NCBI GenBank assembly: GCA_029265355.1
Contig: JAJUJL010000002.1
Span: forward strand, 332,803-396,802
Reading direction: 5' to 3'
Length of the DNA: 64,000 bases
Source: Chloroflexota bacterium
Lineage (GTDB): Bacteria; Chloroflexota; Anaerolineae; Anaerolineales; UBA4823
In this document: piece after piece, positions 7,178-42,536 of the stretch
Position numbering within the stretch: the first letter of the stretch is position 1
Layout of the letters: every line of letters starts with the position of its first letter
Position numbers and translations under genes: made by a program
Notes under the pieces: model-generated
Told to the model about the DNA's origin: nothing
Databases searched by the model: none
What the model saw: only the letters and a program-made list of their open reading frames with translations

Positions 7178-7193
7178 GAGAGGAGAGTCCCAC

Positions 7194-8636: not shown

Positions 8637-8664
8637 AAGCGCCGGTTTTTGGTGGAGGCGTAGG

Positions 8665-9312: not shown

Positions 9313-9320
9313 AGGCTGTT

Positions 9321-10862: not shown

Positions 10863-10903
10863 GTGACCCTATTTGACCTGAGCTGAGGTAGAGGAGCGTG
10901 GCA

Positions 10904-12652: not shown

Positions 12653-12679
12653 CTCCGTATCCGGGGAAGAGGATGTCGT

Positions 12680-13261
12680 ATGGTTTTGAAATTACTGCGC
12701 GAAGTTCTCAAAGTTGGCCAGGCAACTGTGCCTTATCCGTTCGTGCCGGTGGAGGTGGCGCCAGGCTTTCGCGGCAAGCCGGAATACAATCCAGAGCAAT
12801 GCATTGCCTGCGCAGCCTGCACCATCGCCTGTCCGCCCAACGCCTTGAGCATGGAGACCGATCTGGAGAACGGCGTGCGCACCTGGTCGCTCTTCTATGG
12901 GCGCTGCATTTTCTGCGCTCGCTGCGAGGAGGTCTGTCCAACCGGAGCGATTAAATTGGGAGCGGATTTCGAGCTGGCTTCATTTACCCGGCAAGACCTG
13001 ACCGTGCAGGCCGAGTTTCGCCTGGCAGAGTGCCAGCGTTGCGGCGCGTACTTTGCCTCTGCCAAGGAGCTGGAGCATGTTCTGGCGCTGCTCGACCAGG
13101 CCTGGAAGGGCCAGCAGTCGTTATCCGAAGATGACATATCTGCTCGCAAAGCGCTGCTGCGCCTGTGCCCGGAATGCCGCCGGAAGGTCGATCTGCCCCG
13201 TGTAAAGGAGTTGGTGCATACCGCCTGGCCGGCAGTGGAGGTGCTCGATGGCAGAATATGA
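12680..13261 (+). CDS. hyfH: Hydrogenase 2x[4Fe-4S] subunit (NuoI/HycF/HyfH-like)
   Basis: [12 protein letters not shown] and [12 protein letters not shown] motifs. Operon position matches HyfH. Confidence 0.85.
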
Positions 13262-14024
13262 TATTCGCACCGATAGCAAATTCGCGGTCAAGCCAGATGA
13301 AGCGGTCAACGCGCTCAAGGGGGCGCTGCTCAAAGATATCCGCCGCTCAGCCTATGTGTATCGCGTGGACTGCGGTGGCTGCAATGGCTGCGAAATCGAA
13401 ATATTCGCCGCCATCACGCCCATTTTCGATGCGGAGCGTTTCGGCATTAAGGTGGTCTCTTCGCCGCGCCACGCGGATATCCTTGTCTACACGGGAGCGA
13501 TGACGCGCGCGATGCGTGTGCCAGCGCTGCGCGCCTATCACGCTGCGCCAGACCCGAAGATTTGTGTTGCTTATGGCGCATGCGGTTGTTCCGGGGGCAT
13601 TTTTCACGATTTATATGGGGTTTGGGGTGGCGCAGACAAGATCCTGCCGATCGATCTGTATATCCCGGGCTGCCCGCCCACTCCACCCGCCACGGTGCAT
13701 GGCTTTGCTGTGGCCTTGGGCTTACTACAGCAGAAGATGAAAGCCGTGCACCATGTCCAGGGTGAAACGGAGCGCTCACAGTTGATCTCGCCGCAGGTGC
13801 CGCTGTCACTGCGCATTATGATCGAACGGGCGGCCCGGCGCATGGCGGGTTACTGGCACGGTAAACGCATCGCTGACGATTTCTTGAGCATGGTGGATGG
13901 TGGGAACCTTTCAGCGCTCTCGGAATCATTGCACGCTTATTTGCAGAAGAGAGACGATCCGCGCCTGGCGGAGATCATGACGCTGCTCAAGGAAGAGTAT
14001 GCGACTCACCTGGAGGGTGGCTGA
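13248..14024 (+). CDS. hyfI: [NiFe]-hydrogenase small subunit (NuoB/HycG/HyfI-like)
   Basis: [18 protein letters not shown] and IPGCPP cysteine motifs of NuoB-type subunits. Overlaps the hyfH 3' end by 14 nt. Confidence 0.85.
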
Positions 14025-28434: not shown

Positions 28435-28564
28435 TGAACATGAAATGGTGATTCGGGGGGATTAATGCTATATTGCTGGACATGCAGCGGATTAAAGGAT
28501 GAAATCCAAATCGCCAGGAAGCCGCCCGCAAGGACGCACAGCGGCCAATTACCAAGGAGAGAGA

Positions 28565-29098
28565 ATGATCAAAAGAGCCTTGCACTTCCTGTTAATTATT
28601 GTTGTACTATCGTTGGCTATACCGGCATTTGGGGCGAGCCAGGAGCCGGTTGTCATTTACCCCTGGCAAATTCCGCTGAACCAGAACGGGGAACGAGTGG
28701 TCACCGTAAATCCTGGTCAGCCAGTGGTGCTCGGCGCCAACTGGGGGGCCTGCACGCGTGGCCTGGTCACCGCATTTGCGGTTACTTCGGATATATCCTA
28801 TGTGATCGATGGGCGCCCGGTGCTACGCAATCCAAGATTAGATACCCTGTACTGGGATTTTCCACCCCAAGCGGTAACTTTCCCCGGGGCGAGCGCCTGC
28901 GTGAATAAAACCACCCAGGTCTGGACGTTGACCTGGTCTTACGATCTAAAACCGTTGCCTGTTGGGGATCACCCGGCGCACTTCACCTATCAGAACGATT
29001 ATGTGCACATAGACGGCTTCGACAATGACGGCGATGGCAAACCAGATCGCTTCGATTTCGAGCTGGAAGTGGATTTCATCATACGGGTGGTGGAGTAG
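28565..29098 (+). CDS. Secreted hypothetical protein
   Basis: The ATG at 28565 follows AAGGAGAGAGA. Signal peptide MIKRALHFLLIIVVLSLAIPAFGA. The track start at 28499 is an upstream extension. Confidence 0.6.
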   Translation: MIKRALHFLLIIVVLSLAIPAFGASQEPVVIYPWQIPLNQNGERVVTVNPGQPVVLGANWGACTRGLVTAFAVTSDISYVIDGRPVLRNPRLDTLYWDFPPQAVTFPGASACVNKTTQVWTLTWSYDLKPLPVGDHPAHFTYQNDYVHIDGFDNDGDGKPDRFDFELEVDFIIRVVE

Positions 29099-29160: not shown

Positions 29161-30237
29161 TCACTCTATGCGGTACACCGTAAATTCCTCCCGGCAAGGC
29201 CTGCCGTTCGCCAGGTGGAGTTCTTTGCGCTGCGGCAGGTAGATGGTACAAGCAATGGTGGCTATGTTTGGTTCCAAGTCCAGGTGGCGGCACAGTGTGT
29301 CCAACGGGCCGTTGTGGCTGCGCATCAGGGATTTCGCCCACTCGAGGTCCACCTGACCGCTAGCCTGCAGAAGCGCCTGCTGCACGCGTTGGTAGCGCGC
29401 TTCTGAGTTACCAGCCAAGTGCTCGCTCTGGTTGCTCGGAAGCCAGCTATCTTCCAGGTGCTTTGTGGTGTAGTGGTTGGTGCTGACGGAAAAGCCGCCG
29501 GATGCCATAATCACCGGGCTGCTGCTGTAACCGCATTCCACCACCGCAGATCCGCCGCGAGCGTCCTGCAGGATCAGCGTTCCGTTGCCCATAAACCGAA
29601 CCGTGCGCAGGTAATCTAGCGCTGAAGCCACGCTGTCATGCTGTTCCAGGATTGCCATCATCAGGTAGTAGCGGGGCACGCCCGGTCCAATATCCATTGA
29701 GACTACGTGGGTATCAGCTACCGCCAGACCTGCAGCGTTCATGCCTGAGCTAAATACGCCCGGACTGCCAGCGCTGGTCAGATTCAAGTAGGGATAGCCT
29801 GTCTCCGGAAAGGTGGATGACAGGCACTGCAGATGCTGATGATCCTGCCAGTAGTCGCGGTTTTTCACCAGCAGCGGCTCACCATCCTTCGTAATCGGCG
29901 CACCAGCCGCCCAGGTGGTGCAGCCCTGGGCTTCATGGTGCTGATTTTTAGCCTGATCCATCAGGAAGGTGGATATAGTATAGCGAAAGAAGCGCTCCCA
30001 CTCGAGGGACAGCGAATCGCCCAGCCCTCGCAGCATATCCAGAATGGATGGAGCCTGCACCTGCCAGACCTCCAGCAGCTCCTGCTCGTGCTCGTGCACG
30101 TCCAGACCGGTGGCTTCCAGCCTTGCCAGTCGGTCTGCGATAGCGATATGGATGTGATGGTGCAGATCAGCAACCTGCTCGCCGTGCTGCTTGCCGATAG
30201 TGTACGCGTTTCCAAAAAGGCGCAGTTGTCGGATCAT
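29161..30237 (-). CDS. Peptidase C45-family Ntn-hydrolase/acyltransferase-like protein
   Basis: [21 protein letters not shown] is a typical C45 N-terminus. The self-processing site region AQGCTTWAAGAPITKDGEPLLVKNRDY has the nucleophile Cys. ATGA overlap with the upstream ATPase stop. Confidence 0.75.
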   Translation of the reverse strand: MIRQLRLFGNAYTIGKQHGEQVADLHHHIHIAIADRLARLEATGLDVHEHEQELLEVWQVQAPSILDMLRGLGDSLSLEWERFFRYTISTFLMDQAKNQHHEAQGCTTWAAGAPITKDGEPLLVKNRDYWQDHQHLQCLSSTFPETGYPYLNLTSAGSPGVFSSGMNAAGLAVADTHVVSMDIGPGVPRYYLMMAILEQHDSVASALDYLRTVRFMGNGTLILQDARGGSAVVECGYSSSPVIMASGGFSVSTNHYTTKHLEDSWLPSNQSEHLAGNSEARYQRVQQALLQASGQVDLEWAKSLMRSHNGPLDTLCRHLDLEPNIATIACTIYLPQRKELHLANGRPCREEFTVYRIE

Positions 30238-31304
30238 GGATTGCTTTCTTTGCTTGGCATTGTACCCTCGGTAGCTGGCTGGTCTTTGTAGATCCAGCAG
30301 GCTACCTCCTGCCCCCCAATCCGGAAAAACGGCGGGTATTCCTGCTCGCAGATCGAGCCGATTTTGGCGTAGCAGCGCGGATGAAAGGGGCATCCAGAGG
30401 GGGGGGTGATTGGGCTGGGTACGCCACCCTGTAGCAGAATGCGCTGTTTACGGTAAGCCTTGCTCACCCTGGGGATGGCCGCCAGCAGGGCGCGGGTATA
30501 AGGGTGGAGTGGCTCACCGAACAGGGCGTCGGTTATTCCCAATTCGACGATATGACCCAGATACATCACGGCCACGCGGTCGCTGATGTAGTACATCACG
30601 CTCAGATCGTGAGCGATAAACAGGTAAGTCAGATGAAATTCTGCCTGCAGCTCCTCCAGCAGGTTGATCACCTGCGCCTGGATCGATACATCCAGCGATG
30701 AGACCGGCTCATCGGCGACAATAAATTTTGGCTTCATCGCCAGGGCACGGGCAATGCCGATGCGCTGGCGCTGACCGCCAGAGAACTGGTGTGGGAAGCG
30801 GTCGATGTGGCGCTGGTTCAACCCCACGCGCTGTAGGAGCTGGCGGGTTTCAGCCTCGCGCTGGATGGGGTCGCTCACGCCGCGCCGCTCCAGAGGAGTG
30901 CCAATGATCTCGCGCACCGTTTTTCGCGGATTGAGCGACGAGTAAGGATTCTGGAAGATGATCTGGGCCACGCGGTGATAGCTGACCGACTGTTCCTTGC
31001 CATTGTTTTCGAGGAGCTGGTTGCCCTGCACCGGTCGCCCTTGGTAAAAGATCTGCCCGCGTGTAGGCAAGTGCAAGCGAGTCATTACCCGCCCCAGGGT
31101 GGTCTTGCCGCAGCCAGATTCTCCCACCAGACCCAGGGTCTCGCCGGGGAAGATGTCCAGGTCCACACCGTCAACTGCGCGCACCACTTTCTCCCGCGCC
31201 TTGCCCAGTGCGCGCGCCAGCAGGCTAGGGCGTATGTAGAAATGTTTGTAAATCCCCTGCGCGCTGAACAGCGGGATTGTCTGTGGACTTATGGATTGGC
31301 TCAT
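30234..31304 (-). CDS. Oligopeptide/dipeptide-type ABC transporter ATPase (OppF/DppF-like)
   Basis: Walker [10 protein letters not shown]. Signature FSGGQRQR. Walker B FIVADEP. C-terminal oligopeptide-ATPase extension ([15 protein letters not shown]). ATGA overlap at 31301..31304. Confidence 0.9.
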
Positions 31305-32383
31305 ACCGTACGCTCCACGCGATCGCTCCATTGCCAGTTTTCCTGCCGCTGAAAGCCGGTGTGTACCAGGCAGCGGTTGATGTGTCCATCCGGCTCGGTC
31401 ACCATGGGCACCGGACCGATCCGGCACACGTCCTGAACATGCTCGCAGCGCGGTGCAAAGGCGCACCCGAATGGAAGCTCTGCCAGGTCGGGCACGTTAC
31501 CGCGGATCGGCTGCACGCGCAGTTCGCGCATTGAAATGCGCGGTCGACAGTTGAGCAGCCCTTGAGTATAGGGGTGCCTGGGATGCATTACCACTTGCTC
31601 CACGTTGCCTTGTTCGACGATGCGCCCAGCGTACATGACTGCGATGCGCTGGCAGAATTCCGCTGCCAGGCCCAGGTCATGGGTCACCAGGATGATGGCG
31701 GTACCACGTTCTTTGTTGATTCGCAGCATAAGCTCCACGATCTGGGCTTGGATCGTCACATCCAGGGCGGTGGTGGGCTCATCTGCCAGCAGCAGCGTTG
31801 GACCGCAGACCAGGGCTGCTGCGATCAGTGCCCGCTGTTGCATGCCGCCCGAAAACTGGTGTGGGTAGGCCACATAACGATCTATCGGCGATGGGATGCC
31901 CACCTCCCGCATCACTTCGAGCACACGCTGTTTCTCATGGCGGCGCAGCGCGGCATCAAAAGGCCAGGGCATTTTTCGCCCTGGGATGATATGGTGCAGG
32001 CGCAGCGCCTCGCGGATTTGCTCGCCGACCAGGAAGGCCGGATTGAGCGTGGTCTGCGGGTCCTGGAAGATCATTGAAATCTCTTTGCCTCGCACCTGGC
32101 GCATGGCGGAACTGTTCAACTGGCGTAGATCCACACCGCGAAAGCGGATCTCGCCGTCGCTAATATAACCTGGATGACGGATCAGACGCAGGATGGAGAG
32201 CAGCACTGTGCTCTTGCCGCAGCCGGATTCGCCAACGATGCCCAGGATCTCGCCAGCGCGCATGTTGAGGTCCAGGCTGTCCACGGCGCGCACATCGCCG
32301 CGTCGCCCCGGAAAGATCGTCGTCAGGTTACGAATTTCGAGCAGATTGCCATTATGCATAGAACTAACTCCACGCACTGCCAT
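31301..32383 (-). CDS. Oligopeptide/dipeptide-type ABC transporter ATPase (OppD/DppD-like)
   Basis: Walker A GESGCGKST. Signature FSGGMQQR. Walker B LLLADEPTTALD. HPYTQGLL and CAFAPRC tail. The ATG at 32383 shares one base with the permease TAA (TAATG). Confidence 0.9.
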   Translation of the reverse strand: MAVRGVSSMHNGNLLEIRNLTTIFPGRRGDVRAVDSLDLNMRAGEILGIVGESGCGKSTVLLSILRLIRHPGYISDGEIRFRGVDLRQLNSSAMRQVRGKEISMIFQDPQTTLNPAFLVGEQIREALRLHHIIPGRKMPWPFDAALRRHEKQRVLEVMREVGIPSPIDRYVAYPHQFSGGMQQRALIAAALVCGPTLLLADEPTTALDVTIQAQIVELMLRINKERGTAIILVTHDLGLAAEFCQRIAVMYAGRIVEQGNVEQVVMHPRHPYTQGLLNCRPRISMRELRVQPIRGNVPDLAELPFGCAFAPRCEHVQDVCRIGPVPMVTEPDGHINRCLVHTGFQRQENWQWSDRVERTV

Positions 32384-33321
32384 TAAACATCCACCTTCAA
32401 CCGGGGGTCGAGGATATCGCGCAGCCCTTCGCCAAACAGGTTGATCGCCAGTACCAGCACCAGGATGGCGATACCGGGCAGCGACGCCACCCACCAGGCG
32501 ACCAGCATGTAATCGCGTCCGGCGGCCACCATTGAGCCCCAGGCAGGGATGCTGGGCGGGATACCCAATCCCAGGAAGCTCAGGCTGGCTTCCATGATGA
32601 TCATGTGACCCATACGCAGCGTCCCCAGTACAAATACCGATTGGATGATATTGGGCAAGATTTCTTTCAATATGATCGCAGGATGGCTTAATCCGGCGAC
32701 TCGCGCTGCCTCCACATATTCTTGGGTTTTTTCAGAAAGCATCTCACCACGCACCAGGCGGTAAAACTCCACCCAGCCCTTAAAGGTCAGTGCAAGGATC
32801 AGGTTGGTGAAGCCCGGTCCAAGGAAGGCCATCATGCCAATGGCAAAGATCAGAAATGGAAATGCGAGCAGCAGGTCGGCGAAGCGCGAAACCAGGGTGT
32901 CAAACCATCCGCGGTAGTATCCAGCCAGCGCGCCGAGGAACACTCCAACCAACACCGAAGCGCCGACTGAGAGCACTCCGACCAGCAGCGAGATGCGCGA
33001 CCCATAGATGATGCGCGTCAGCAGATCGCGCCCTTGGGCGTCGGTGCCCATTGGATATTCCCAACTACCTCCTTCGATCCAGCTAGGCGGATCCAGCCGC
33101 ACGCGCAGGTTGCCGCGCACTGGATCGTGTGGGGCGATTTGCTCTGCAAAGAGGGCCATGATAAAGAACAGGATGATCACCAACCCACCCAGGAGCGCCA
33201 TGGGGTGATTGCGGAGCTCACCCAAAAACTCGGTGAAGTTATGCCGCCAGACGCGCAGGCGGATCCGCCACAAGTATGCGCTGCGCTGCCAGAAGGTTTC
33301 CAGTTCGGGAGTTGCTTCCAT
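32383..33321 (-). CDS. ABC transporter permease (OppC/DppC-like)
   Basis: Six TM segments. N-terminal OppC-type segment. Conserved loop YVEAARVAGLSHPAIILKEILPN. Confidence 0.9.
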   Translation of the reverse strand: MEATPELETFWQRSAYLWRIRLRVWRHNFTEFLGELRNHPMALLGGLVIILFFIMALFAEQIAPHDPVRGNLRVRLDPPSWIEGGSWEYPMGTDAQGRDLLTRIIYGSRISLLVGVLSVGASVLVGVFLGALAGYYRGWFDTLVSRFADLLLAFPFLIFAIGMMAFLGPGFTNLILALTFKGWVEFYRLVRGEMLSEKTQEYVEAARVAGLSHPAIILKEILPNIIQSVFVLGTLRMGHMIIMEASLSFLGLGIPPSIPAWGSMVAAGRDYMLVAWWVASLPGIAILVLVLAINLFGEGLRDILDPRLKVDV

Positions 33322-33335
33322 ATGGTGTTCCCTGC

Positions 33336-34346
33336 TCAGAGCTCGATCTTAGGGTTCAGGTAGGTGTACATCACATCTACGATAAGGTTTGCCATCACAA
33401 ACGTGAAGGCGTAGATCATGACGGTTCCCTGGATGAGCGGGAAATCGCGATCGAAGATGGCGCTCACCACCATACGACCCAATCCGGGCCAGCCAAACAC
33501 TTCTTCGACAATCATGTTGCCACCCAACAGAATGCCCACCTGCAAGCCAACCACCGTCACAGTGGGGATGAGGGCGTTGCGCAGGGCATGTTTGAGCACC
33601 ACAATCCATTCTGAGGCGCCCTTACTGCGCGCCAGGGTCACATAATCGCTGCGCAGCGTTTCTAGCATGCTGGATCGCAGTACCCGCGCCACCACTGCCG
33701 CTACCGGCGCGCCTAGTGTCAGTGAGGGCAGGATCAGGTGCCTGAGGCTGCTCCAAAAGGCGATGCGGTTGCCGCTCAGCAGGCTGTCCAGCACGAAATA
33801 GCCGGTGATGTTTTGAAGCTGGGCATCGAACCCGATGCGTCCCTGTACCGGCAGCCACTTCAGTTGCACGGAAAACAGTAAAATGAGAATAATTCCCAGC
33901 CAGAAGCTTGGCATTGAGATGCCCAGGAAGGCGCCTGCCATGCTTAGCCGGTCAACCGCTGAATTTTGGCGCACCGCGGAGATGATGCCGATCGGGAAAG
34001 CGATGAGCAAGCTGATGACGAGCGAACCTAAAGCCAGCTCGATAGTGGCGGGGAGACGCTCAGAAATGAGCTGCGTCACCGGTCGTTTGAGCACATAAGA
34101 ATAGCCCAGGTCGCCGCGCACAGCATCCTTGAGAAACAGCCAGAGTTGAACTGGCAGTGGCTCGTCCAGGTGGAATTCTTTGCGCAACTGTTCCATCTCC
34201 CCCTCAGAGACTGCTCCGCCCTGACCCATCATGATATCCACCGGGTCGCCCGGCGTCAGACGGATAAACAAGAAGACCAGGATCGCCACACCCAGCACGA
34301 TAGGGATCGTCACCAGGACGCGTTCCAGGATTTTAACGGCTCTCAT
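33336..34346 (-). CDS. ABC transporter permease (OppB/DppB-like)
   Basis: MRAVKILERVLVTIPIVLGVAILVFLFIRLTPGDP is a typical OppB N-terminus. Conserved loop YVTLARSKGASEWIVVLKHALRNA. Confidence 0.9.
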   Translation of the reverse strand: MRAVKILERVLVTIPIVLGVAILVFLFIRLTPGDPVDIMMGQGGAVSEGEMEQLRKEFHLDEPLPVQLWLFLKDAVRGDLGYSYVLKRPVTQLISERLPATIELALGSLVISLLIAFPIGIISAVRQNSAVDRLSMAGAFLGISMPSFWLGIILILLFSVQLKWLPVQGRIGFDAQLQNITGYFVLDSLLSGNRIAFWSSLRHLILPSLTLGAPVAAVVARVLRSSMLETLRSDYVTLARSKGASEWIVVLKHALRNALIPTVTVVGLQVGILLGGNMIVEEVFGWPGLGRMVVSAIFDRDFPLIQGTVMIYAFTFVMANLIVDVMYTYLNPKIEL

Positions 34347-34428
34347 GCTCCGCCTCCTGCACGATCTTCAAATCCAAATCTTCACAGCGGGGCGATGAGC
34401 ATCATCGCCCCGCTGTCTGTATAATAAT

Positions 34429-36144
34429 TTACGGCCCCAGGCACACGTCATGCAGGTTGATGCGCCCATCTGCGGCAGGCTCCCAGTTCTGCACTCTCGT
34501 AGAAGCAGCTTCTGCTTCTTCTGGAAGGATCAGGAAAACCGCTGGCGCCTCGTCGTACACAAGTTGCTGCGCCTCGTCGTAAATCTTCTGTCGTTCAGTT
34601 GGATCGTTGGTGGTTTCACCTAGCACGATCAGCTCATTGACGCGGGGGTTATTATAGGTCGAGAAGTTGCCGCGTCCATAGGGCGTCCCAGTTTGAAATC
34701 CATGCCACTTAGCCTCGAAGTGTCCCACGGGGTCGAAGGCTGAGTCGCCCCAGTCGTCCAAGTATGCCAGGCGCTCACCAGCCAGCAACTGCTCGCGCAC
34801 CACGCTGTACTCCCAGAAACGCACACTGGCGTCAATTCCGATGGCCCGGAACATGTCGGCAACCGCTTCAGCCAGCGAACGGAATTCTTCCAGCGTGTCC
34901 AGGGTGAATGAGAAAGTTTGCCCATCCTTATCCAGAAGACCATCGCCGTTGCTGTCGGTCCAGCCGGCTTCCGCAAGCAGCTCCAGCGCCTTATCAGGAT
35001 CATATGCGTAGGGCTGCAGGCTCTTGTTGACGTAGTTGTTGTAGGGTGAAAGCGGTCCAGGCAGCGCTACTGCGCGCCCGCCGTAGATCTCCTCAATGAT
35101 CAGGTCTTTGTCCACGGCGTAGTTCATTGCCTGACGTACGCGTACGTCATCGAAGGGCGGCTTGTTGACGTTCATTTCCATCCACTTGGGGTTGGTGCCG
35201 ATTGCTGTCTTGACCTGGATACCGGGTGTCTGCGAGAGCGTGTCGATTAGCTCTGCTGGCACCGCCTGGATGATATCCACCTCGCCTGCCAGCAGGGCAG
35301 CCACGCGGGTAGAGGCCTCTGGGATCACGCGGAAGATAGCACCCTGGACGCAGGCAGGCTGGACCGGCGCAAGGTCTGGCGCGCCGCCGTAGTAGCCATC
35401 GAACCTTTCCAGAACCACTTCTTCCAAACCGGGCTGAGCAGAAACGAACTTAAACGGACCAGTGCCGATGGGGTTTTCGATGAAACCCTGGGTGCCCACT
35501 TCTTCCAGATAGCCCATGGGAACGATCTGCTGGTGAACCATGAGCTGCATGGCGGGAGGCCACGGGCCGTTGAAGTTCATCCTGACCGTGTAGTCATCCA
35601 CCTTATCGACTGACATCAGCGGCGCGATCAAGCCTTTGCGCGGCGAGGTGTGCGGATCGGGATACTCAATCATGTTCTCCTGGATGATGCGGTTGAAGGT
35701 ATACACCACATCATCGGCGGTCATTTCAACACCGTTGTGAAAGGTAACACCCTGGCGCAGCTTGACTTCTAGCGTCTGCTCATCCAGCCAATTCATCTCT
35801 TCTGCGATCTCCAAATGCACGCCGTTGCTCGTATCGCGCGTCACCAGCCCGTCGAACATGTTGCGGATCACAGTTTCGGACTGGCGGCTACGATGATCGG
35901 CAGGATCGAGCGAGGTGGGCGCCTGGGAAAGGGCGACGATGATCGTCTGACGACCGGGCGCAGCGGTAGGAGTGACCAACTTCTCTACCTCGACCAGCCT
36001 CTCTTCCGTTACAACGACTGTTCGCACCACCTCAACAGTCTTTTCAACCACTTGGGGCTGCGCGGGTTCAGTTGGTGCGCAGGCTGCCAGCAAGAGTGCA
36101 GCGGGCAGAACCACGCGAAATAGAGTATTAAAGAAACGCTTCAT
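34429..36144 (-). CDS. Family-5 (peptide/opine/nickel) solute-binding lipoprotein
   Basis: The ATG at 36144 follows GGAGGAGG. Lipobox LLLAAC. SBP_bac_5-like body (LEVKLRQGVTFHNG, GTGPFKF). The track start at 36297 is an upstream extension. Confidence 0.85.
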   Translation of the reverse strand: MKRFFNTLFRVVLPAALLLAACAPTEPAQPQVVEKTVEVVRTVVVTEERLVEVEKLVTPTAAPGRQTIIVALSQAPTSLDPADHRSRQSETVIRNMFDGLVTRDTSNGVHLEIAEEMNWLDEQTLEVKLRQGVTFHNGVEMTADDVVYTFNRIIQENMIEYPDPHTSPRKGLIAPLMSVDKVDDYTVRMNFNGPWPPAMQLMVHQQIVPMGYLEEVGTQGFIENPIGTGPFKFVSAQPGLEEVVLERFDGYYGGAPDLAPVQPACVQGAIFRVIPEASTRVAALLAGEVDIIQAVPAELIDTLSQTPGIQVKTAIGTNPKWMEMNVNKPPFDDVRVRQAMNYAVDKDLIIEEIYGGRAVALPGPLSPYNNYVNKSLQPYAYDPDKALELLAEAGWTDSNGDGLLDKDGQTFSFTLDTLEEFRSLAEAVADMFRAIGIDASVRFWEYSVVREQLLAGERLAYLDDWGDSAFDPVGHFEAKWHGFQTGTPYGRGNFSTYNNPRVNELIVLGETTNDPTERQKIYDEAQQLVYDEAPAVFLILPEEAEAASTRVQNWEPAADGRINLHDVCLGP

Positions 36145-36405
36145 TGTCCTCCTCCATTTGGTAATTGAATGATTGGATGCCGTACCCCTATGACGAAGAT
36201 GGATTGGGATAACCACTTTATTCTTTTCCCTCGACCTCCTTGCTATAGAATAGATTTGGACGGGTGTGCCGGATAAAAGCCTTTTTGGATAGGCCAATCT
36301 GAAGGCACCTGTGCAGACCTGAACTGCAGGCTGGCGCTCCGGTTCAATTCAACAGCCCATGAATTGCGAAATGTGAATGGCTCTTGTGCATAGGGTGTAT
36401 TTGGT

Positions 36406-39400
36406 TCAACTGGCCACAGGAGATGGCACACCGTGCATCAGGGATTTCAACGGAAGCAGCTCTCGCTTCATCACCCGCAGCGCCTGCTCAGGGTTGACGC
36501 GTCCATATAGCCCGCCCAAAATGCTAACCAGATATTGGGCATCTAGTAGCACTTCACCGTTTGGGCGCAAAATATACTCTTCCTCGGGTGAAAAAAGCGC
36601 TCCTTCTGCGATAGCTGCCAGGTCTTGCTGGTAGCCAGGCTCGCGGTATCGGCACTTATGGTAGATCGTGCCTCCGATCAACAGCACGGTGACAGGCTGG
36701 TTGAAGTAATTGACACCATACTGAAGGAAGTAGGTTTCGGTCTCATCCACACGCCCGGTGTGTTTACCGGTGGTGACTGCCATGATCTCGCGCGCCAGGT
36801 ATGATGTGGCGGCATTCTCCAAGGCTGTGTTTGGCGAGGCATGCGGATTCTGGCTGATCCAGCTCAAGTATCCGTCCAGATCTACCGAATTGCGCCCATT
36901 GCTGCGCGTGACAAAGCGACGGAACTGGTCATTGCCAGGCGTCATTTCTTGTGGGTAGCGCAGTTCCAGGTAGCTGGCGAGCTCGTCCGCCAGCTTGCCG
37001 TTCTTGAAGCGCGGCAGTTCCTTGATATTCTCTGCATTGTAGCTCAGGCCGAACTTACCTTCGACGCGGCGAAAAACGAGCGGCACGTTGGGCGTTTTCA
37101 GGATAGTGCGCTTGACTTTCCGTCGAGGATCCTGTCCTGGGAAAGCGTACAATGGATTGTCATGAACGTTGGAGTAAAAATCGGTGGTGGCGCCGCCAAT
37201 ATCCAATGCCATGATATTGCCCAAACCCGGTTCACTGCCATAGCCGTTGGCTAACAGGTTTATGCCGCGAAAGGCTGCGCGCGGGGTAGGTATGAAGGGC
37301 GCGTCCATGTACTCCTCAACCACATCGAAGCCTTTGCCGCGGATGATCACGGTTTGGAACAACTCGCGAATTGCTTCGTTGACCACCTCAATGCGAAAGT
37401 TGTTGATCTCGGGCATCACATTGGGCATGATGCGAATATCGATATTGCGGTAGCAGAAAATATTGGCAATTCGATCTCGAATATCCTGGTTGCCAGCGTA
37501 GATGACTGGCACGCCGTAGTCGGCATAGGTGGCGTAGCGGGCGTTGCGGGCCAGCAAGCGGGCGTTGTGAAGCTGGGTAAAGGTGTCGCCGCCGTCATCC
37601 GTACCGCCTGCCAGGAGGATAATTTCTGGTTGATCCACCTCGTAAATGCGCCGCGCCTGTTCGGGTGTGAGTTGCCCTTCATAAGAGTTCACCAGCTTAG
37701 CTCCCGCGGTCAGCGCAGCCAGCTCAGCCGCGAAGCCCGATTCTTCTTTAACCAGCGCTACGGTCACCATCTTCAAACCGCCTTTGGCGCTGGAACAGGG
37801 AAGGCGGACGGCGAACTCGCGCATCTTGGCAGCCAGGGGTTTCCAGTCGCCACTTTCTCGGCAAGCATCCAACACTCCCAGTCCATCCGCTAGGCCGATG
37901 CGAATGTCTTCGACGGTGGTGGGCTTGTAGCGCAGTTCAAAGGTTTCTCGCCGGGTATCAAAGATGCCCACCTTGGTATAGGTGCTGCCGAAGTCCACCA
38001 CCAGGATTTTTTCGTCTGCCAATCCCGTGAGGCCAATTTCCTTGCGGAAGCTGGTGACCATCTCTTCATCGACGCGCTCGACTTCGGCGTCTTCAGAGAT
38101 GAAGCTGGCTTCATTGGCGTGGATGATGTCTTTGTAAAAGTACCACGGATAGGTCTTGCGAACCAAATCGACGCGTTCCATTTCACTATAGACCTTGATG
38201 CCATTCCACTCATCACAGCGGCACATGCCATTGATCACTTTCGTGCGGCAAGCGCCAGCCATCTCGTAACGCCGGTCCACCACTGTGATATGCGGCCCTT
38301 GAAACAGCCCAATCTGCAGCGCCAGGTCGAGCGTGTCACCAGCAATCAAGCCGCAGATACCGATCGGGTAGTTGGTTTCGTCAACCAGACTGAGCAGCAT
38401 GGTTTCGTAGTTCTTCTCGCGGTTTTCCTTTGGCTCATTGGCCCACTCATCGAAGTTTTCGGGGCGTATCTCACCCTCGTATCCACCCAGGATGGCGCAG
38501 TGCAGCAGGTTGTACATGGCGCTCTGCTTGAGCTCTTTGATGCGCCCGACCACTATCGGATCCGACCAGATATCGGGTACATTGCCTTTGGCGAAATCCC
38601 AGCAGACCTGCTTGACGATCTCGCAGGATTCGATGATGTCATCGGCGCTGGCTTCATGGTGTGCTTCGGAATGGGTGACGACATGCAGAATGTCGGGCTG
38701 CATGTAGAGCTGGGTGTAGATGCCAAATGCCAGGTGACCCTTGGCCTGGTTCAGATTAGGAGGGAAGGAAGGTAGGCCGGAGCGCGTCTGACGCAGGATG
38801 CGAAATTCGAAGTGGCGGGTAAGCGGCTCCGCCAGTTCATAGGCGGCTTTCATCTTTGCCAGGTCGTCCATGGCAGAGATTTCCGGCGGCAGCTCGAACA
38901 TCATCTGCATCACGTAATTCTTGATGCCCTTTTTTAGGGCAATCACGGCGCACAACACGTGGTCGGTCACCTGCATGTCGTCGGAAGCGTAGCGCAGCCC
39001 CCATTGATGGGGATCGTTGATCTCCAGCGGTTTGCCGATCGAAGCCCAATACTCGATGGTGCGAAAGTGCTCGTCGAAGCTATCACGTATACTGATCGGG
39101 CCACGTCCATCCAGCTCGTTGTAAAAAAAGATTGGTACAGCGGGAAAAGCGATGTTGAGATGTTCTTCCCAAAGATGCGCCAGTGTGACCAGCTCATCGG
39201 TGCCGGTATAGATGCGCGTCAAGGGGAAATTGCCGCGCTGAGAAGCAGCTTTGAGGCGCTTCAGGTCCTCGATGGAGCGGATCGGTGCTCCACCTTGACC
39301 AGCCAGGTACTTGCTGGGGTCTTCTTCGCCGCGGATGAACTTGGCCAGCAGCTCTTGAGAGGTCTGGTCAGGAGCGAGTGAGACAATCTCGAAAGCTTCA

Positions 39401-40113
39401 GCTTCTGCCAGCTTCTCAATCGCCGCCACAGTGGGTTCGATGGTCTCTGCCGCGATGCCGATGTGGGCTCGGATGATTGGGCGGTTTTCTCGCTCGCGCA
39501 CCTGCCGGATACGCTCGACAAGATAGTCAGACCAGGGATTTTCTTGACGCACATGGGTGGTAGAGCGGCGCTGGGCGAATGCCTCCAGCTCCTCCATGGT
39601 AACAAAGTCATCCACCACCAGCTCAAAGAACCCCTGGAAGTGCTCCTTCTGGCGGTATTCATTGGCTATTTTTTCAAGATCAAAGTGGCGTTCTTCATCC
39701 CGGATGAAGCGGTCTTCCTCCAGTGGTAAGCCGGTCATGGCGCGTACCAGATTGGCTGCCGGTCGCAAACCGCCGAAGCTGTAGCGGATGCCCGAATCGC
39801 GCGGGTGCAGCCCATATTTGGTGGCTTCTTCGATGAATTCACTGATCAGCTTATCCACATGCAGGTCGCCCAGGCGCATGGAGACGCCCACCACTTCCGG
39901 GCGCGCCTCGCGCACCTTGTTGATCACTTCACGGATCGGGACTGCTGGACCGAGCTTGACCGAAACATAACCCAGGCCCATATCCTGCATCCAATCAGCA
40001 AAGTTCTCAACACCCAGGTTGTGCACACACTTGCCAATCGCCCCGACCATAACACGTCGTTTTTGAGCGCTGGTGTGGATCTTCCTACTTGGATGGTTAT
40101 TTTTTTTGGCCAT
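36406..40113 (-). CDS. Fusion protein: cobalamin-binding domain + glutamate-mutase-E-like TIM barrel + GlmL/MutL-like ASKHA ATPase
   Basis: B12-type Rossmann N-terminus at 39715..40113. GlmE-like landmarks in the centre. The C-terminal 533 aa (36409..38007) carry ILVVDFGSTYTK, CSSAKGGLKM, IILLAGGTDDGG and ALDIGGATTDFYS, as in GlmL. The ATG at 40113 has GAGGAG 10 nt upstream. The track start at 40215 lies inside the upstream gene. Confidence 0.8.
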   Translation of the reverse strand: MAKKNNHPSRKIHTSAQKRRVMVGAIGKCVHNLGVENFADWMQDMGLGYVSVKLGPAVPIREVINKVREARPEVVGVSMRLGDLHVDKLISEFIEEATKYGLHPRDSGIRYSFGGLRPAANLVRAMTGLPLEEDRFIRDEERHFDLEKIANEYRQKEHFQGFFELVVDDFVTMEELEAFAQRRSTTHVRQENPWSDYLVERIRQVRERENRPIIRAHIGIAAETIEPTVAAIEKLAEAEAFEIVSLAPDQTSQELLAKFIRGEEDPSKYLAGQGGAPIRSIEDLKRLKAASQRGNFPLTRIYTGTDELVTLAHLWEEHLNIAFPAVPIFFYNELDGRGPISIRDSFDEHFRTIEYWASIGKPLEINDPHQWGLRYASDDMQVTDHVLCAVIALKKGIKNYVMQMMFELPPEISAMDDLAKMKAAYELAEPLTRHFEFRILRQTRSGLPSFPPNLNQAKGHLAFGIYTQLYMQPDILHVVTHSEAHHEASADDIIESCEIVKQVCWDFAKGNVPDIWSDPIVVGRIKELKQSAMYNLLHCAILGGYEGEIRPENFDEWANEPKENREKNYETMLLSLVDETNYPIGICGLIAGDTLDLALQIGLFQGPHITVVDRRYEMAGACRTKVINGMCRCDEWNGIKVYSEMERVDLVRKTYPWYFYKDIIHANEASFISEDAEVERVDEEMVTSFRKEIGLTGLADEKILVVDFGSTYTKVGIFDTRRETFELRYKPTTVEDIRIGLADGLGVLDACRESGDWKPLAAKMREFAVRLPCSSAKGGLKMVTVALVKEESGFAAELAALTAGAKLVNSYEGQLTPEQARRIYEVDQPEIILLAGGTDDGGDTFTQLHNARLLARNARYATYADYGVPVIYAGNQDIRDRIANIFCYRNIDIRIMPNVMPEINNFRIEVVNEAIRELFQTVIIRGKGFDVVEEYMDAPFIPTPRAAFRGINLLANGYGSEPGLGNIMALDIGGATTDFYSNVHDNPLYAFPGQDPRRKVKRTILKTPNVPLVFRRVEGKFGLSYNAENIKELPRFKNGKLADELASYLELRYPQEMTPGNDQFRRFVTRSNGRNSVDLDGYLSWISQNPHASPNTALENAATSYLAREIMAVTTGKHTGRVDETETYFLQYGVNYFNQPVTVLLIGGTIYHKCRYREPGYQQDLAAIAEGALFSPEEEYILRPNGEVLLDAQYLVSILGGLYGRVNPEQALRVMKRELLPLKSLMHGVPSPVAS

Positions 40114-41296
40114 GCGACTCTGTCTCCTCAGAATGGATAAGTTGATCGAGCGTGGTGATACCATAGCGCTGCGGGGCGCGGCTGGCGGCAATATCTTTGC
40201 CTTGCAGTTTTCCATCGATGAGATATTCGTGACCCAGGCGCTGCTGAGCCCAGGTTAGCACCCGGTCAATCTGGGGTGTTGGCACGCCAGCCAACTCAGC
40301 GATGCCGCGGGTGGCGATCAACGCATAGGGCACATCCTCTGACAGATAGCGTGCCTGAAAATCGGGCTCTAAGCCGCCCTCAGATTGTCTCACCGGAGCT
40401 CTCAAACCCTGGTAGCTCCGATTTGTGTTGAACGCGGCCTGGAGGCTACTGGTATCGTGCAGGTCTCTTCCATAAGATAGATGCAGCCATTGATCTAAAG
40501 GACGGACGGCTGAAAGGTCAAGCATTGGGAAGCTCTCTTGCAGGGCCGCCCGAACGGCCTGCACTTCGTCGCTCATGGTTTGCAGCACATTGGCTGTGAA
40601 AGCATCCACGCCCTGATAAAAGAGAGGAGCTTCCTCGAGCGGTTCGCCAGACCAGGTGTGAAATAATCCATACATGATGCCAGGGTGAATGAGTTGCCCG
40701 GTGCCTGCCAGGGTAAGGCTAAGAAAATTAGCGATGGGTGTGACTTGCAGGTCGAGGAGGTGGGTCAGGGTGTGAGAGATGGCTGCAGCTTGATGTGTTG
40801 GGTGGGCGGCAAGATCGACCTGGGATTTTGCGCCCAGGACAAGCACACTCTGTCCAAAGACTTCGATACGGCAAGCCCATGGCAGGGTTTGCAGCCCGAA
40901 GATTACACAGCGCTCGGCAAGCTTGCCCAGTGCCTCACGCGCGCACAGGTCGAAAGCGCCGCGAGCTGGTAGAGCGCCGATCCAGGTGCCTGGTTCTAGA
41001 TGGGAAGCAAGCTGGCACAACACAGCTTCGTGGGCGTAAGCGGGCAACGCCAGCAGCACCATTTGTGCATGAGCGGCGGCATCCTGGGGATTCGAACTGA
41101 TTAGGCTGGGATAGCCAAGCAGCTCGCTCTCTCGGTTGCGCACGCACATACCGCCGCCCAAAGCTAAGCCCTGTTTCCAACGCTCTGCTTCTTCCGGGAA
41201 GGATAGAAAGACATTAATATGATTATCAGGCCGTGATGCCAGTATCCCAGCTAGGGTGTGGGCAGCATTACCGCCACCGCAGATCAGGATGTGCAC
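40097..41296 (-). CDS. NAD(P)-dependent opine (octopine/nopaline) dehydrogenase-family protein
   Basis: Rossmann start MHILICGGGNAAHTLAG. C-terminal helical-domain motif ARYLSEDVPYALIATRGIAELAGVPTP is typical of Octopine_DH. Overlaps the fusion gene start by 17 nt. Confidence 0.8.
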   Translation of the reverse strand: MHILICGGGNAAHTLAGILASRPDNHINVFLSFPEEAERWKQGLALGGGMCVRNRESELLGYPSLISSNPQDAAAHAQMVLLALPAYAHEAVLCQLASHLEPGTWIGALPARGAFDLCAREALGKLAERCVIFGLQTLPWACRIEVFGQSVLVLGAKSQVDLAAHPTHQAAAISHTLTHLLDLQVTPIANFLSLTLAGTGQLIHPGIMYGLFHTWSGEPLEEAPLFYQGVDAFTANVLQTMSDEVQAVRAALQESFPMLDLSAVRPLDQWLHLSYGRDLHDTSSLQAAFNTNRSYQGLRAPVRQSEGGLEPDFQARYLSEDVPYALIATRGIAELAGVPTPQIDRVLTWAQQRLGHEYLIDGKLQGKDIAASRAPQRYGITTLDQLIHSEETESHGQKK

Positions 41297-41298
41297 GC

Positions 41299-42171
41299 TT
41301 ACTCCAAATATAAGAGATCGTTTTCGCGATATGCGTTATCTATACGTTGCAGTGAGGCCAGTGTTTGTTCGGGGAGCCGGAAAGATAAGGCTGCGATGAA
41401 AACATTCAGCAAAGACATCAGCGCAGCCGCGGAAAGACTGTGAGCCACGCCTTCGGTGACCACTTCAAAAGCGAAATCGGCGTTTTCTGCCAGCGGAGAG
41501 ACAATGGAGTCTGTAATTGCGATCACCTTAGCGCCAGCACTGCGTGCTTTGCGAACCGCGCTCACGGTTGATCGTACGTAACGCCACAGGTCGATTGCAA
41601 CAAGCAGGTCGCCCTGACGCAATCCCGTCAAGTCAGAAGCCAGAGAAAGGCCTTCGTTGATATTCAAGCGGGCATCCAAACCAATGATCTTCAGCGAATG
41701 GCTCAAAAATACTGCCGCGGAAGAAGATATACCGGTGCCGACGACCAGGATGCGCTGCGCTTCGGCCAAGGCCTGGACTGCCTCGTTGAGTTTCTCGTTG
41801 TCCAGATTGCTCGCTGTGCGCTGGATATTGCTGATATCCGTTTTGAATATGGTTCCAGGCATCCCGCTCGACTCTTCTGGAGATTCAATACGCGATTTCA
41901 AGCGATCCATAGCTCGCAGATAACTGGGCAGTTCGGCACGGATGGCGCGCTGCATCTCGGGATAACCCTCATACCCCAATGTTTGGGCAAAGCGGACCAC
42001 GGTAGCGGCGCTGGTGCCAGTCCGTTCACCTGCCTGGTGAGCTGATGCGAAGGACATAAAGTATTGGTTATTCAGGATGAAGCGCGCCAGGCGTTTGTGT
42101 TTTGGGCTGAGCTGTGGGTGAAGCTCGGAGATGCGTTGAACAATCTTTTGACCGTAAGGCGGTACTTCCAT
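41299..42171 (-). CDS. MurR/RpiR-family transcriptional regulator (HTH_6 + SIS)
   Basis: HTH region LSPKHKRLARFILNN...SAHQAGERTGTSAATVVRFAQTLGYEGY. SIS domain RILVVGTGISSSAAVFLSHSL. The ATG at 42171 is preferred because the TTG at 42186 lies inside the predicted -10 box. Confidence 0.8.
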   Translation of the reverse strand: MEVPPYGQKIVQRISELHPQLSPKHKRLARFILNNQYFMSFASAHQAGERTGTSAATVVRFAQTLGYEGYPEMQRAIRAELPSYLRAMDRLKSRIESPEESSGMPGTIFKTDISNIQRTASNLDNEKLNEAVQALAEAQRILVVGTGISSSAAVFLSHSLKIIGLDARLNINEGLSLASDLTGLRQGDLLVAIDLWRYVRSTVSAVRKARSAGAKVIAITDSIVSPLAENADFAFEVVTEGVAHSLSAAALMSLLNVFIAALSFRLPEQTLASLQRIDNAYRENDLLYLE

Positions 42172-42177
42172 TACTCT

Positions 42178-42218
42178 ATAATACAATAATATTGCAATAA
42201 ATGAAATATCTATTTCAT
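42178..42218 (-). promoter_or_regulatory. Candidate promoter with overlapping palindromic operators for the rpiR-led operon
   Basis: Minus-strand reading is TTTCAT (42201..42206), 17 nt, TATTAT (42178..42183), 6 nt, ATG (42171). The palindrome TATTGCAATA (42190..42199) lies in the spacer. The inverted repeat ATGAAAT-N4-ATTTCAT (42201..42218) overlaps the -35. Confidence 0.4.
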
Positions 42219-42493: not shown

Positions 42494-42536
42494 AAAAAAA
42501 CCAGGGTGAGTGTGCAGTCTACGCACTCACCCTGGT
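42494..42536 (-). terminator. Rho-independent terminator after the thiolase/DUF35 pair
   Basis: 13-bp stem ACCAGGGTGAGTG (42500..42512) / CACTCACCCTGGT (42524..42536). On the minus strand it is followed by T7 (the A-run at 42494..42500). Begins 5 nt after the stop at 42541. Confidence 0.8.

Follow-up and report, generated by a model that had tools for sequence, protein, structure and literature searches.

The closest described counterpart of the enzyme considered here is glutamate mutase (GlmS/GlmE with GlmL), encoded in the mes cluster of Clostridium and Escherichia coli O157:H7. Its B12 domain, TIM barrel, and GlmL-type ASKHA domain are all present in a predicted 1235-aa fusion protein of a Chloroflexota bacterium of the order Anaerolineales (assembly GCA_029265355.1, contig JAJUJL010000002.1), of which a stretch of 64,000 nt (positions 332,803–396,802; hereafter the window) was analyzed. 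In contrast to the glutamate mutase system, the three parts are joined in one chain in the order S-E-L, the locus has no nearby methylaspartase, mesaconase, or adenosyltransferase gene, and the fusion gene is paired instead with a gene for an opine dehydrogenase (ODH). The comparison of gene neighborhoods indicates that this ODH and mutase pair is the conserved core of a cluster of nine minus-strand genes (29161–42171), all running in the same direction, as read from the open reading frames (ORFs) and assigned with Pfam and NCBIfam. The other genes encode an RpiR-type regulator, a five-component Opp/Dpp-type importer, and a C45-family hydrolase.

A B12 mutase fused to its own repair or chaperone domain is also known from IcmF, an isobutyryl-CoA mutase with a G-protein chaperone (PDB 4xc6), which was a weaker structural match. 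However, the chaperone part of the present fusion is of the ASKHA-type GlmL family and not a MeaB-type GTPase, and its barrel is of the glutamate mutase type and not of the acyl-CoA mutase type. Among ODHs, the metagenomic enzymes from hot springs (mODHs) have an Arg/Gly specificity pair in common with the window ODH but belong to another clade (Telek et al., 2024; PMC10787698), and the octopine dehydrogenase (OcDH) of Pecten maximus and other invertebrate ODHs differ from the window ODH in the Arg/Gly at its specificity sites and in its bacterial, operonic context. The staphylopine and pseudopaline Cnt systems (CntKLM with CntABCDF) likewise encode an ODH beside an Opp/Nik-type five-component importer, but the window has no CntL, no exporter, and no CntA equivalog, and carries a B12 mutase and an amide hydrolase instead. 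The occ/noc systems of Agrobacterium resemble the logic proposed below, the import and cleavage of an N-(carboxyalkyl) amino acid; they rely on FAD opine oxidases (OoxAB/NoxAB) with binding proteins of the polar-amino-acid type and are not known to contain a B12 enzyme. The searchable literature on ODHs linked with glutamate mutase or GlmL, C45, cobalamin, or methylaspartate does not describe the present gene combination, in agreement with a preliminary description of the window, made from the sequence alone, which had not recognized it as a known pathway. A paper mentioning an octopine dehydrogenase in Thermoanaerobacter (PMC3751872) is irrelevant to the combination.

The B12 domain of the fusion was recognized by a family profile, which matched corrinoid proteins (E = 3.6e-7) and B12 mutases (E = 1.9e-6) of the PDB over its first ~110 residues, while Pfam and NCBIfam models gave a weak B12-binding match at the N-terminus and a full-length GlmL/MutL match at the C-terminus of the window protein. 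The canonical cobalamin motif D-x-H-x-x-G is replaced by C29-V-H31-N-L-G34 (window 40018–40035). The string GKCVHNLG is found in all of the 120 closest homologs and C-[VI]-H in most of the nearer standalone relatives listed, and the Asp is kept only in distant family members of ~620 aa. To our knowledge, no B12 enzyme with a Cys-x-His-x-x-Gly variant has been described.

An AlphaFold2 model of the mutase part, built from the family alignment, had a mean pLDDT of 88. The best PDB matches of the barrel in Foldseek were the glutamate mutase E chains 6h9e_B and 1cb7_B (E ~1e-12, target TM 0.65, 12% identity), followed by ornithine and lysine aminomutases and then acyl-CoA mutases. A comparison with the GlmE family by hhalign gave a probability of 83% (E = 9e-6), limited to the C-terminal half of the barrel, in which the GlmE motif KTPHEA aligned with the family-invariant H-V-V-(S/T)-x-S-E-A and the conserved Glu483 was matched to the GlmE Glu, which we take to be the residue that binds the adenosyl ribose in glutamate mutase. 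Profile, fold, and hhalign comparisons thus bear out the B12-mutase-like catalytic part that had been noted in the preliminary description.

The C-terminal domain scored 287.7 bits against PF13941 (cut-off 27; model positions 1–450 of 450) and is 27% identical (E = 8e-37) to the GlmL of the E. coli O157:H7 glutamate mutase cluster (L024 in our locus numbering), which served as the GlmE/GlmL reference. It falls below the equivalog cut-offs of NF040745 (283 vs. 475) and TIGR01319 (194.8 vs. 204) and would be classified as a member of the GlmL family and not as an equivalog. The fusion thus unites relatives of GlmS, GlmE, and GlmL in a single protein, but by sequence criteria it is not a glutamate mutase. 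Its domain homology, His31/Gly34, Glu483, and the fused reactivase-like domain suggest that it may bind adenosylcobalamin (AdoCbl) and generate a 5'-deoxyadenosyl radical.

The window ODH aligned over its full length with Pecten maximus OcDH (3c7a; E = 1.8e-90, 40% identity), exceeded the PF02317 cut-off (120.6 vs. 30 bits), and carries the dinucleotide-fold motif GGGNAAH. Its H204, R316, and D321 correspond to the catalytic His212, Arg324, and Asp329 of OcDH, in which R324 is the pyruvate-binding Arg. The opine-dehydrogenase-like enzyme of the preliminary description is therefore a genuine homolog. Its clade is far nearer to the invertebrate octopine dehydrogenases than to the Arthrobacter enzyme (ArODH; E = 1e-14), which raises the question of the origin of the animal opine dehydrogenases.

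Recently, the hot-spring mODHs (mODH-45, -47, -48, and others) were reported to favor, unexpectedly, L-Asp, L-Glu, and sulfonate analogues as substrates with pyruvate, and to prefer the C4 diacid L-Asp (Km 0.5–25 mM, kcat ~0.1–1.6 per s) over L-Glu (Telek et al., 2024; PMC10787698). In ArODH and mODH-582, the choice between hydrophobic and acidic amino acids could be switched by exchanging Arg110/Gly198 and the Arthrobacter residues Ala111/Asn198 for one another (PMC10787698). The window ODH has R112/G200 at these sites, the pair that this mutagenesis tied to a preference for acidic amino acids; its specificity residues therefore point to acidic amino acids and not to opines in general. L-Arginine is an unlikely substrate, since Arg and Gly replace Gln118 and Tyr208 of OcDH and Glu142 is Gln. 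The Arg/Gly pair was present in all 18 other ODHs examined beside mutase-like genes (window, mODH, and glycan-cluster types, and the ODH of L060), so that each of the three ODH clades found in the mutase-adjacent slot carries it, and absent from the controls ArODH (A/N) and scallop OcDH (Q/Y). The published study gives no gene context or physiological role for the mODHs, and 3-methylaspartate was outside the tested substrates (PMC10787698). That L-Asp is the best tested yet a mediocre substrate would fit a substituted C4 diacid as the natural substrate, such as the product of a glutamate-mutase-type reaction. The window ODH is 22–23% identical to the mODHs. A second clade, encoded in variant operons and beside a standalone mutase relative (odh2; L010–L012, L016, L019), is 41–51% identical to the mODHs and 27% to the window ODH. 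In UniProt, mODH-45 comes closest to E8MYZ6 (93%), presumably an entry of Anaerolinea thermophila.

Homologs of the fusion number in the hundreds (73–91% identity over 1235 residues), come nearly all from metagenome bins of Anaerolineales/Chloroflexota, and bear only the database names 'glutamate mutase L' or 'TIGR01319 family'. The window's nine proteins were located by tblastn in 51 fusion-encoding loci, of which 18 came from species-representative genomes, 29 from metagenomes, and four from an exact look-up, some being copies of one contig. The ODH gene directly adjoins the fusion gene in 39 of the 51 loci and does not in two (L026/L027), the remaining 10 being too short to tell. The importer accompanies the fusion in 29 loci, which span Anaerolineales, Caldilinea, a Candidatus Aquidulcis metagenome-assembled genome (MAG), and a Bacillota MAG, and is absent from three loci with ample flank (L005, L006, L025). 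RpiR was found upstream in 31 loci, and C45 after the second ATPase gene in 15. The complete nine-gene order is identical in a Caldilinea sp. (L028). In two rearranged settings, the order is shuffled and partners are kept: in the Bacillota bin (L015), the ODH-fusion genes have the importer upstream, a GntR/UTRA regulator replaces RpiR, and a Peptidase_C26 protein is the hydrolase; in L026/L027, the fusion gene comes after those for the importer and C45. Ten variant operons (L010–L012, L016, L041, L044, L045, L049, L050, L052) have an mODH-like ODH downstream of the fusion in place of the OcDH-like one upstream, with the other genes kept, which by sequence is a non-orthologous displacement.

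The proposal that the genes form one unit was thus put to a synteny check across genomes, and because synteny holds there, the nine genes are supported as a functional unit and not as chance neighbors. The linkage postulated in the preliminary description was retained, whereas the nine-gene operon as a functional whole was narrowed: the conserved core comprises just ODH and mutase, and the importer, C45, and RpiR appear as a lineage-specific shell around this pair. ODH and mutase are taken as the core because an ODH also adjoins standalone forms of the mutase part, including some with no more than ~25% identity. The family has few members: residues 1–700, searched exhaustively against 1.8 billion representative proteins, returned 399 relatives only, comprising a few GlmL-fusion clusters and some 60 standalone clusters (540–630 aa, 23–41% identity). 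Among the standalone relatives, an ODH gene is followed by the mutase-like gene in L019. In L020, an ODH gene is followed by a mutase-like gene fused to a GSH-S/RimK-type ATP-grasp domain (P0130; 1174–3765) and then by a Peptidase_C26 gene. In L059, ODH and mutase-like genes lie 1 nt apart within a glycan-biosynthesis cluster; in L022, likewise a glycan cluster and equipped with two ATP-grasp ligases, an ODH is encoded 2.6 kb downstream. In L060, the pair stands alone amid unrelated genes. The most divergent GlmL fusion (L025; 49% identity) retains the ODH as its sole neighbor. A standalone 555-aa paralog of the mutase part (35% identical) is encoded immediately upstream of rpiR-ODH-fusion in L018 (5753–7420); its B12-binding match is above the cut-off, its PF06368 (GlmE family) match is just below, and it has no GlmL domain. 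The pairing is not absolute, as the gene upstream of the standalone relative in L058 is not an ODH. In L021 (P0136; 163–2361), where the mutase-like part shares its chain with a weak Peptidase_M15-like region and genes for the large and small subunits of an aconitase-family enzyme come next, the context is uninformative on ODH pairing.

The importer has the composition of an Opp/Dpp-type system, a family-5 solute-binding protein (SBP) with two permeases and two oligo_HPY ATPases. Its proteins reached no NCBIfam equivalog cut-off for any known ligand class, and the solved structures nearest to the SBP, none of them close, are AppA, HbpA, GsiB, DppA, AccA, and NikA. The C45 protein scored 166.8 bits against NF040521 (cut-off 85), matched PF03417, and aligned to 3gvz with the Cys matched and a predicted self-cleavage site at Gly105|Cys106. 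The C45 slot is filled by a GGT without signal peptide in L018, which has a window-type ODH, and in L050, which has an mODH-type ODH, each ending a second importer variant, and by Peptidase_C26 in L015; Peptidase_C26 also occurs beside the standalone relative in L020. GGT and Peptidase_C26 are gamma-glutamyl-amide hydrolases by family annotation. In isopenicillin N, it is the delta-(L-alpha-aminoadipoyl) amide that the founding C45 enzyme cleaves. Because GGT or Peptidase_C26 can take the place of C45, the likely bond can be narrowed to an omega-amide: by analogy, the common denominator would be the omega-amide (gamma-glutamyl-type) of an acidic amino acid and not any peptide. Of the peptide- or opine-type substrate proposed in the preliminary description, the opine dehydrogenase is genuine, but its specificity residues favor acidic amino acids, and the bond is likelier an omega-amide.

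The reading that we favor, tentatively and with rather less than even confidence, is that the nine genes form a substrate-responsive operon with a reversible glutamate/3-methylaspartate/N-(1-carboxyethyl) opine module that works catabolically in the window. The AdoCbl-type mutase would interconvert glutamate-type and branched 3-methylaspartate-type acidic skeletons, and the NAD(P)-dependent ODH would join that amino acid to pyruvate or split it from pyruvate, the opine being N-(1-carboxyethyl)-3-methylaspartate or a close analogue. In the catabolic direction, the importer would take up an amide conjugate of an acidic opine or amino acid, the bond being likeliest of the gamma-glutamyl (omega) type; the cytoplasmic C45 hydrolase would release the opine or amino acid; the ODH would oxidize it to pyruvate and the branched amino acid; and the mutase would isomerize the latter to glutamate, the thermodynamically favored side, with expression under RpiR control. 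Since the mutase would run toward glutamate, no methylaspartase or mesaconase would be needed. In other genomes, the pair accompanied by ATP-grasp ligases and glycosyltransferases would run biosynthetically and build an amide-linked decoration. The model builds on the genes present and their conserved linkage, on the mutase fold, and on the catalytic and specificity residues of the ODH, from which we infer cobalamin use, the substrate, and the chemistry, order, and direction of the steps.

The catabolic appearance of the window operon comes from its importer, its hydrolase, and a small-molecule regulator (RpiR; GntR/UTRA in L015), and no exporter was found among its genes by Pfam; in the glycan-type clusters, ATP-grasp ligases stand in place of the hydrolase and importer. 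In tblastn searches with E. coli O157 queries, which covered the whole window and loci L001–L024, including the reference cluster, no methylaspartase, FumA-type mesaconase, GlmS, GlmE, or PduO-type adenosyltransferase was detected in the window or in L001–L023, which agrees with the earlier remark that methylaspartase and mesaconase are missing. The canonical methylaspartate pathway was rejected for lack of methylaspartase, mesaconase, and GlmS/E.

Several observations weigh against the catabolic glutamate/3-methylaspartate model. For every operon protein, it is drawn from gene and sequence evidence. RpiR regulators usually sense phosphosugars, which the model leaves unexplained. No C45 gene lies within 1.1 kb 3' of the ATPase genes in L012, L045, and L052, and no ODH gene is adjacent to the fusion in L026/L027. 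The contexts in which the pair stands alone or in glycan clusters suggest that the ancestral role of the module may be biosynthetic. Most of the remaining points concern the mutase. Its cobalamin motif appears as C-x-H-x-x-G and not D-x-H-x-x-G. The N-terminal half of the barrel, corresponding to the arginine-claw region of GlmE, was left without alignment by hhalign, both to a single GlmE and to the GlmE family. The window fusion has no match to PF06368, and its barrel is only 12% identical to GlmE; among the relatives, the L018 paralog reached 24.6 bits and P0130 27.5 bits (cut-off 26.6). In phmmer searches of the PDB, the fusion and P0130 matched B12 or ATP-grasp domains only, with no GlmE alignment, and the B12 domain was the sole match of the family profile among PDB sequences. 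The barrel also has invariant residues of its own (R215, H217, S245, Y302, D335, R337, E364, R374, D378, R444, H477), and the aminomutases stand close to it among the structural matches.

Several of these features speak for a rather unlikely alternative, in which the radical chemistry is a different one: the mutase would act on the opine itself, such as N-(1-carboxyethyl)glutamate, or on the amide-linked residue before hydrolysis, or would be an aminomutase or eliminase, with ODH and mutase still catalyzing consecutive steps. The claw residues and the Glu of GlmE, presumably R66, R100, R149, and E171 in Clostridium cochlearium numbering, lie in the alignment motifs QPRAG, TRLN, VRHG, and YEGGG, and by eye only the strand-1 Arg of the fusion, R215, looks equivalent. 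The claw is thus unrecognizable, and the five conserved arginines of the family (R201, R215, R337, R374, R444) would suit a tricarboxylate; the invariant set of its own and the unaligned claw mean that the substrate may not be free glutamate or methylaspartate. Different chemistry would also agree with the lower root-mean-square deviation of the ornithine and lysine aminomutases over the barrel compared with GlmE, with the acceptance of L-Glu by mODHs, and with the altered C-x-H motif as the sign of a divergent enzyme. However, GlmE is the best full-length structural match, and it alone is backed by profile comparison and by PF06368 in the relatives.

An unlikely second alternative is that the module runs in the opposite direction. 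Importer and hydrolase would supply glutamate from peptides or gamma-glutamyl compounds, the mutase would make 3-methylaspartate, and the ODH would pull this unfavorable equilibrium through reductive condensation with pyruvate. The tricarboxylate opine so formed could take up NAD(P)H reducing equivalents as a sink, or act as a solute or as a building block. A role of opines as NAD(P)H sinks is known from invertebrate muscle. The pair occurs without importer or C45 in L005, L006, L025, and L060, alone among housekeeping genes, and with ATP-grasp ligases and glycosyltransferases in L020, L022, and L059, which is naturally read as biosynthetic. The polysaccharide clusters L022 and L059 contain glycosyltransferases, a DegT aminotransferase, and a Polysacc_synt flippase, with an FdtA-like gene and the ATP-grasp ligases in L022, a setting in which an amino sugar may carry an opine-type acyl group as decoration. 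Opine formation would also be in line with the release of glutamate by GGT and C26, with the group-4 membrane hydrogenase and the fermentative look of the host, and with the 40% identity of the window ODH to the fermentative animal OcDH. Nevertheless, the window operon has neither exporter nor ligase, an inducible importer with a hydrolase is a typical catabolic layout, and making an opine from an imported amino acid would bring no carbon or energy.

Two further alternatives are poorly supported. It is very improbable that the genes form two unrelated neighboring units, rpiR-ODH-fusion on one side of the 261-nt spacer between the fusion and SBP genes and, on the other, a peptide importer of generic kind with its C45 peptidase: the spacer could harbor a promoter, and the ODH-fusion pair occurs without the importer in L005, L006, and L025, but fusion and importer remain together in 29 loci across the taxa named above, the partners are kept in the rearranged orders of L015 and L026/L027, and the second importer/GGT variant is found with both ODH clades (L018, L050). 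Equally improbable, and largely rejected, is a Cnt-like opine metallophore, in which the ODH, together with the mutase, would make an aminopolycarboxylate chelator and a NikA/CntA-like importer would retrieve the metal complex: Cnt systems are marked by just such an ODH next to an Opp/Nik-type importer, the SBP resembles, below threshold, the NikA and CntA models as well as NikA structures, and an N-(1-carboxyethyl) diacid would, on chemical grounds, chelate metals, but there is no CntL-like nicotianamine synthase gene, exporter, or metal regulator among the nine genes, the CntA model reached 104 bits against a cut-off of 800, the regulators are of RpiR or GntR types, and the conserved amide hydrolase would have no role.

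Beyond the favored catabolic model for the window, a broader scheme is possible but doubtful: the ODH/mutase pair may represent an unrecognized branch of opine metabolism, in which a new family of cobalamin mutases with the Cys-x-His motif and, in Chloroflexota, an integral GlmL reactivase would make or consume a branched acidic amino acid such as 3-methylaspartate, acid-specific ODHs would couple it with pyruvate, ATP-grasp ligases of some bacteria would install the tricarboxylate opine on glycans or other amines, and Anaerolineae would scavenge it through the importer and then the C45, GGT, or C26 amidase. The component families are all known; what is new is the pairing of ODH and mutase, the fused reactivase with the Cys-x-His motif, and the link to ODHs that lack an assigned physiological role. 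Anaerolineae and their relatives are abundant, hard-to-grow fermenters of digesters, sediments, and hot springs. The fusion is among the most conserved large enzymes of Anaerolineae-type bacteria and goes by no other annotation than 'glutamate mutase L'. Should the model prove right, the cobalamin-dependent mutases would gain a new family, marked by an unusual Cys-x-His motif and by a repair domain in the same chain, and ODHs would gain a physiological role beyond crown galls, metallophores, and invertebrate muscle. The model would also explain the odd acidic preference and the missing physiological role of the biocatalytically interesting hot-spring mODHs (PMC10787698).

Table 1. Features of the nine-gene locus and of its borders (positions in the window).
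Feature	Coordinates	Strand	Basis
RpiR/MurR-family regulator, HTH_6 + SIS, 290 aa	41299..42171	-	Pfam, NCBIfam
Opine dehydrogenase (ODH), 399 aa, invertebrate octopine-DH-like clade	40097..41296	-	PF02317, 7.6e-35
Fusion protein, 1235 aa, whole gene	36406-40113	-	ORF; homologs
Fusion residues ~17-130: predicted B12-binding (Rossmann-like) domain	39724..40065	-	Family profile vs. PDB; AlphaFold2 model
Fusion residues ~195-660: predicted TIM-barrel mutase catalytic domain	38134..39531	-	AlphaFold2, Foldseek, hhalign
Fusion residues 703-1235: GlmL/MutL-type (ASKHA) putative reactivase domain, stop codon included	36406..38007	-	PF13941, 2e-85
Fusion/SBP spacer, 261 nt; possible internal promoter or attenuator	36145..36405	-	Sequence reading
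Family-5 solute-binding lipoprotein (SBP), 571 aa, lipobox LLAAC	34429..36144	-	PF00496 (SBP_bac_5), 1.2e-83
GC-rich 15-bp hairpin, SBP/permease spacer	34385..34415	-	Folding
ABC permease 1 (DppB/OppB type)	33336..34346	-	BPD_transp_1 + BPD_transp_1_N
ABC permease 2 (DppC/OppC type)	32383..33321	-	OppC_N + BPD_transp_1
ABC ATPase 1 (DppD/OppD type)	31301..32383	-	ABC_tran + oligo_HPY
ABC ATPase 2 (DppF/OppF type)	30234..31304	-	ABC_tran + oligo_HPY
Cytoplasmic C45-family Ntn (N-terminal nucleophile) hydrolase/acyltransferase, 358 aa	29161..30237	-	NF040521; PF03417
Perfect palindrome, candidate operator	42201..42218	-	8+2+8, AT-rich leader
Intrinsic terminator of upstream OB-fold/thiolase genes; upstream boundary	42494..42536	-	13-bp stem, U7
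Convergent small-secreted-protein gene; downstream boundary	28499..29098	+	Without Pfam match; 75% identity, equivalent position in L001

Reading the sequence confirmed the nine co-directional genes and each of the junctions named in the preliminary description (Table 1). The rpiR and ODH genes are separated by 2 nt (TAA-GC-GTG), and the ODH and fusion genes overlap by 17 nt (40097–40113) at the junction ATGGCCAAAAAAAATAA, with GAGGAGA 9 nt 5' of the ATG. The fusion start at 40113 is supported because homologs of identical length (1235 aa) align from residue 1. The two permease genes lie 14 nt apart, the start of the first ATPase gene overlaps the stop of the second permease gene in TAATG at 32383, and ATGA overlaps join the two ATPase genes (31301–31304) and the second ATPase gene and the C45 gene (30234–30237). 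This tight packing is a layout compatible with co-translation, and a single transcript may cross the 261-nt spacer.

The terminator predicted upstream of the cluster was recovered at exactly its earlier position (−27.4 kcal/mol, z = −6.5, followed by seven U), and the AT-rich promoter region next to it corresponds to a spacer 5' of rpiR that is 45% G+C overall and very AT-rich over its last ~80 nt. The palindrome ATGAAATA-GA-TATTTCAT lies in this AT-rich leader, ~30 nt upstream of the rpiR start (42201–42218), and is a candidate RpiR operator. A search for an operator common to the rpiR leader and the fusion/SBP spacer found none, the spacer having a different palindrome (36345–36366), and no strong terminator was found in the spacer (36145–36405). 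The 82-nt spacer between the SBP and permease genes folds with −34.3 kcal/mol (z = −4.8); its hairpin at 34385–34415, which has no clear U-tract, is probably an mRNA-stabilizing or attenuating element that raises SBP expression over that of the membrane components. An Rfam scan of the whole window detected no riboswitch or other RNA family, and a scan for consensus promoters and terminators gave counts no better than shuffled sequences and missed the real terminator owing to the 11-nt loop of the latter.

The rest of the window contains no cobalamin, methylaspartate-pathway, or opine genes and looks like part of a fermentative Chloroflexota-type genome. The region 4212–14024 carries genes for a membrane-bound energy-converting (group 4-like) NiFe hydrogenase or an Mrp-type complex, with three Proton_antipo_M proteins, an NADHdh protein, a fused 30-kDa/49-kDa/NiFeSe subunit, and a 20-kDa subunit. 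A 1676-aa ORF at 53936–58966 gave faint matches only (Rha78A-like Ig domain, DUF4962), and a single ORF at 59250–61049 combines chorismate-binding and class-IV aminotransferase domains in a PabB-PabC-like arrangement. Outside the window, in the neighborhood of the divergent fusion of L025 (2072–5047), an intein-interrupted RtcB ligase is encoded beside archease.

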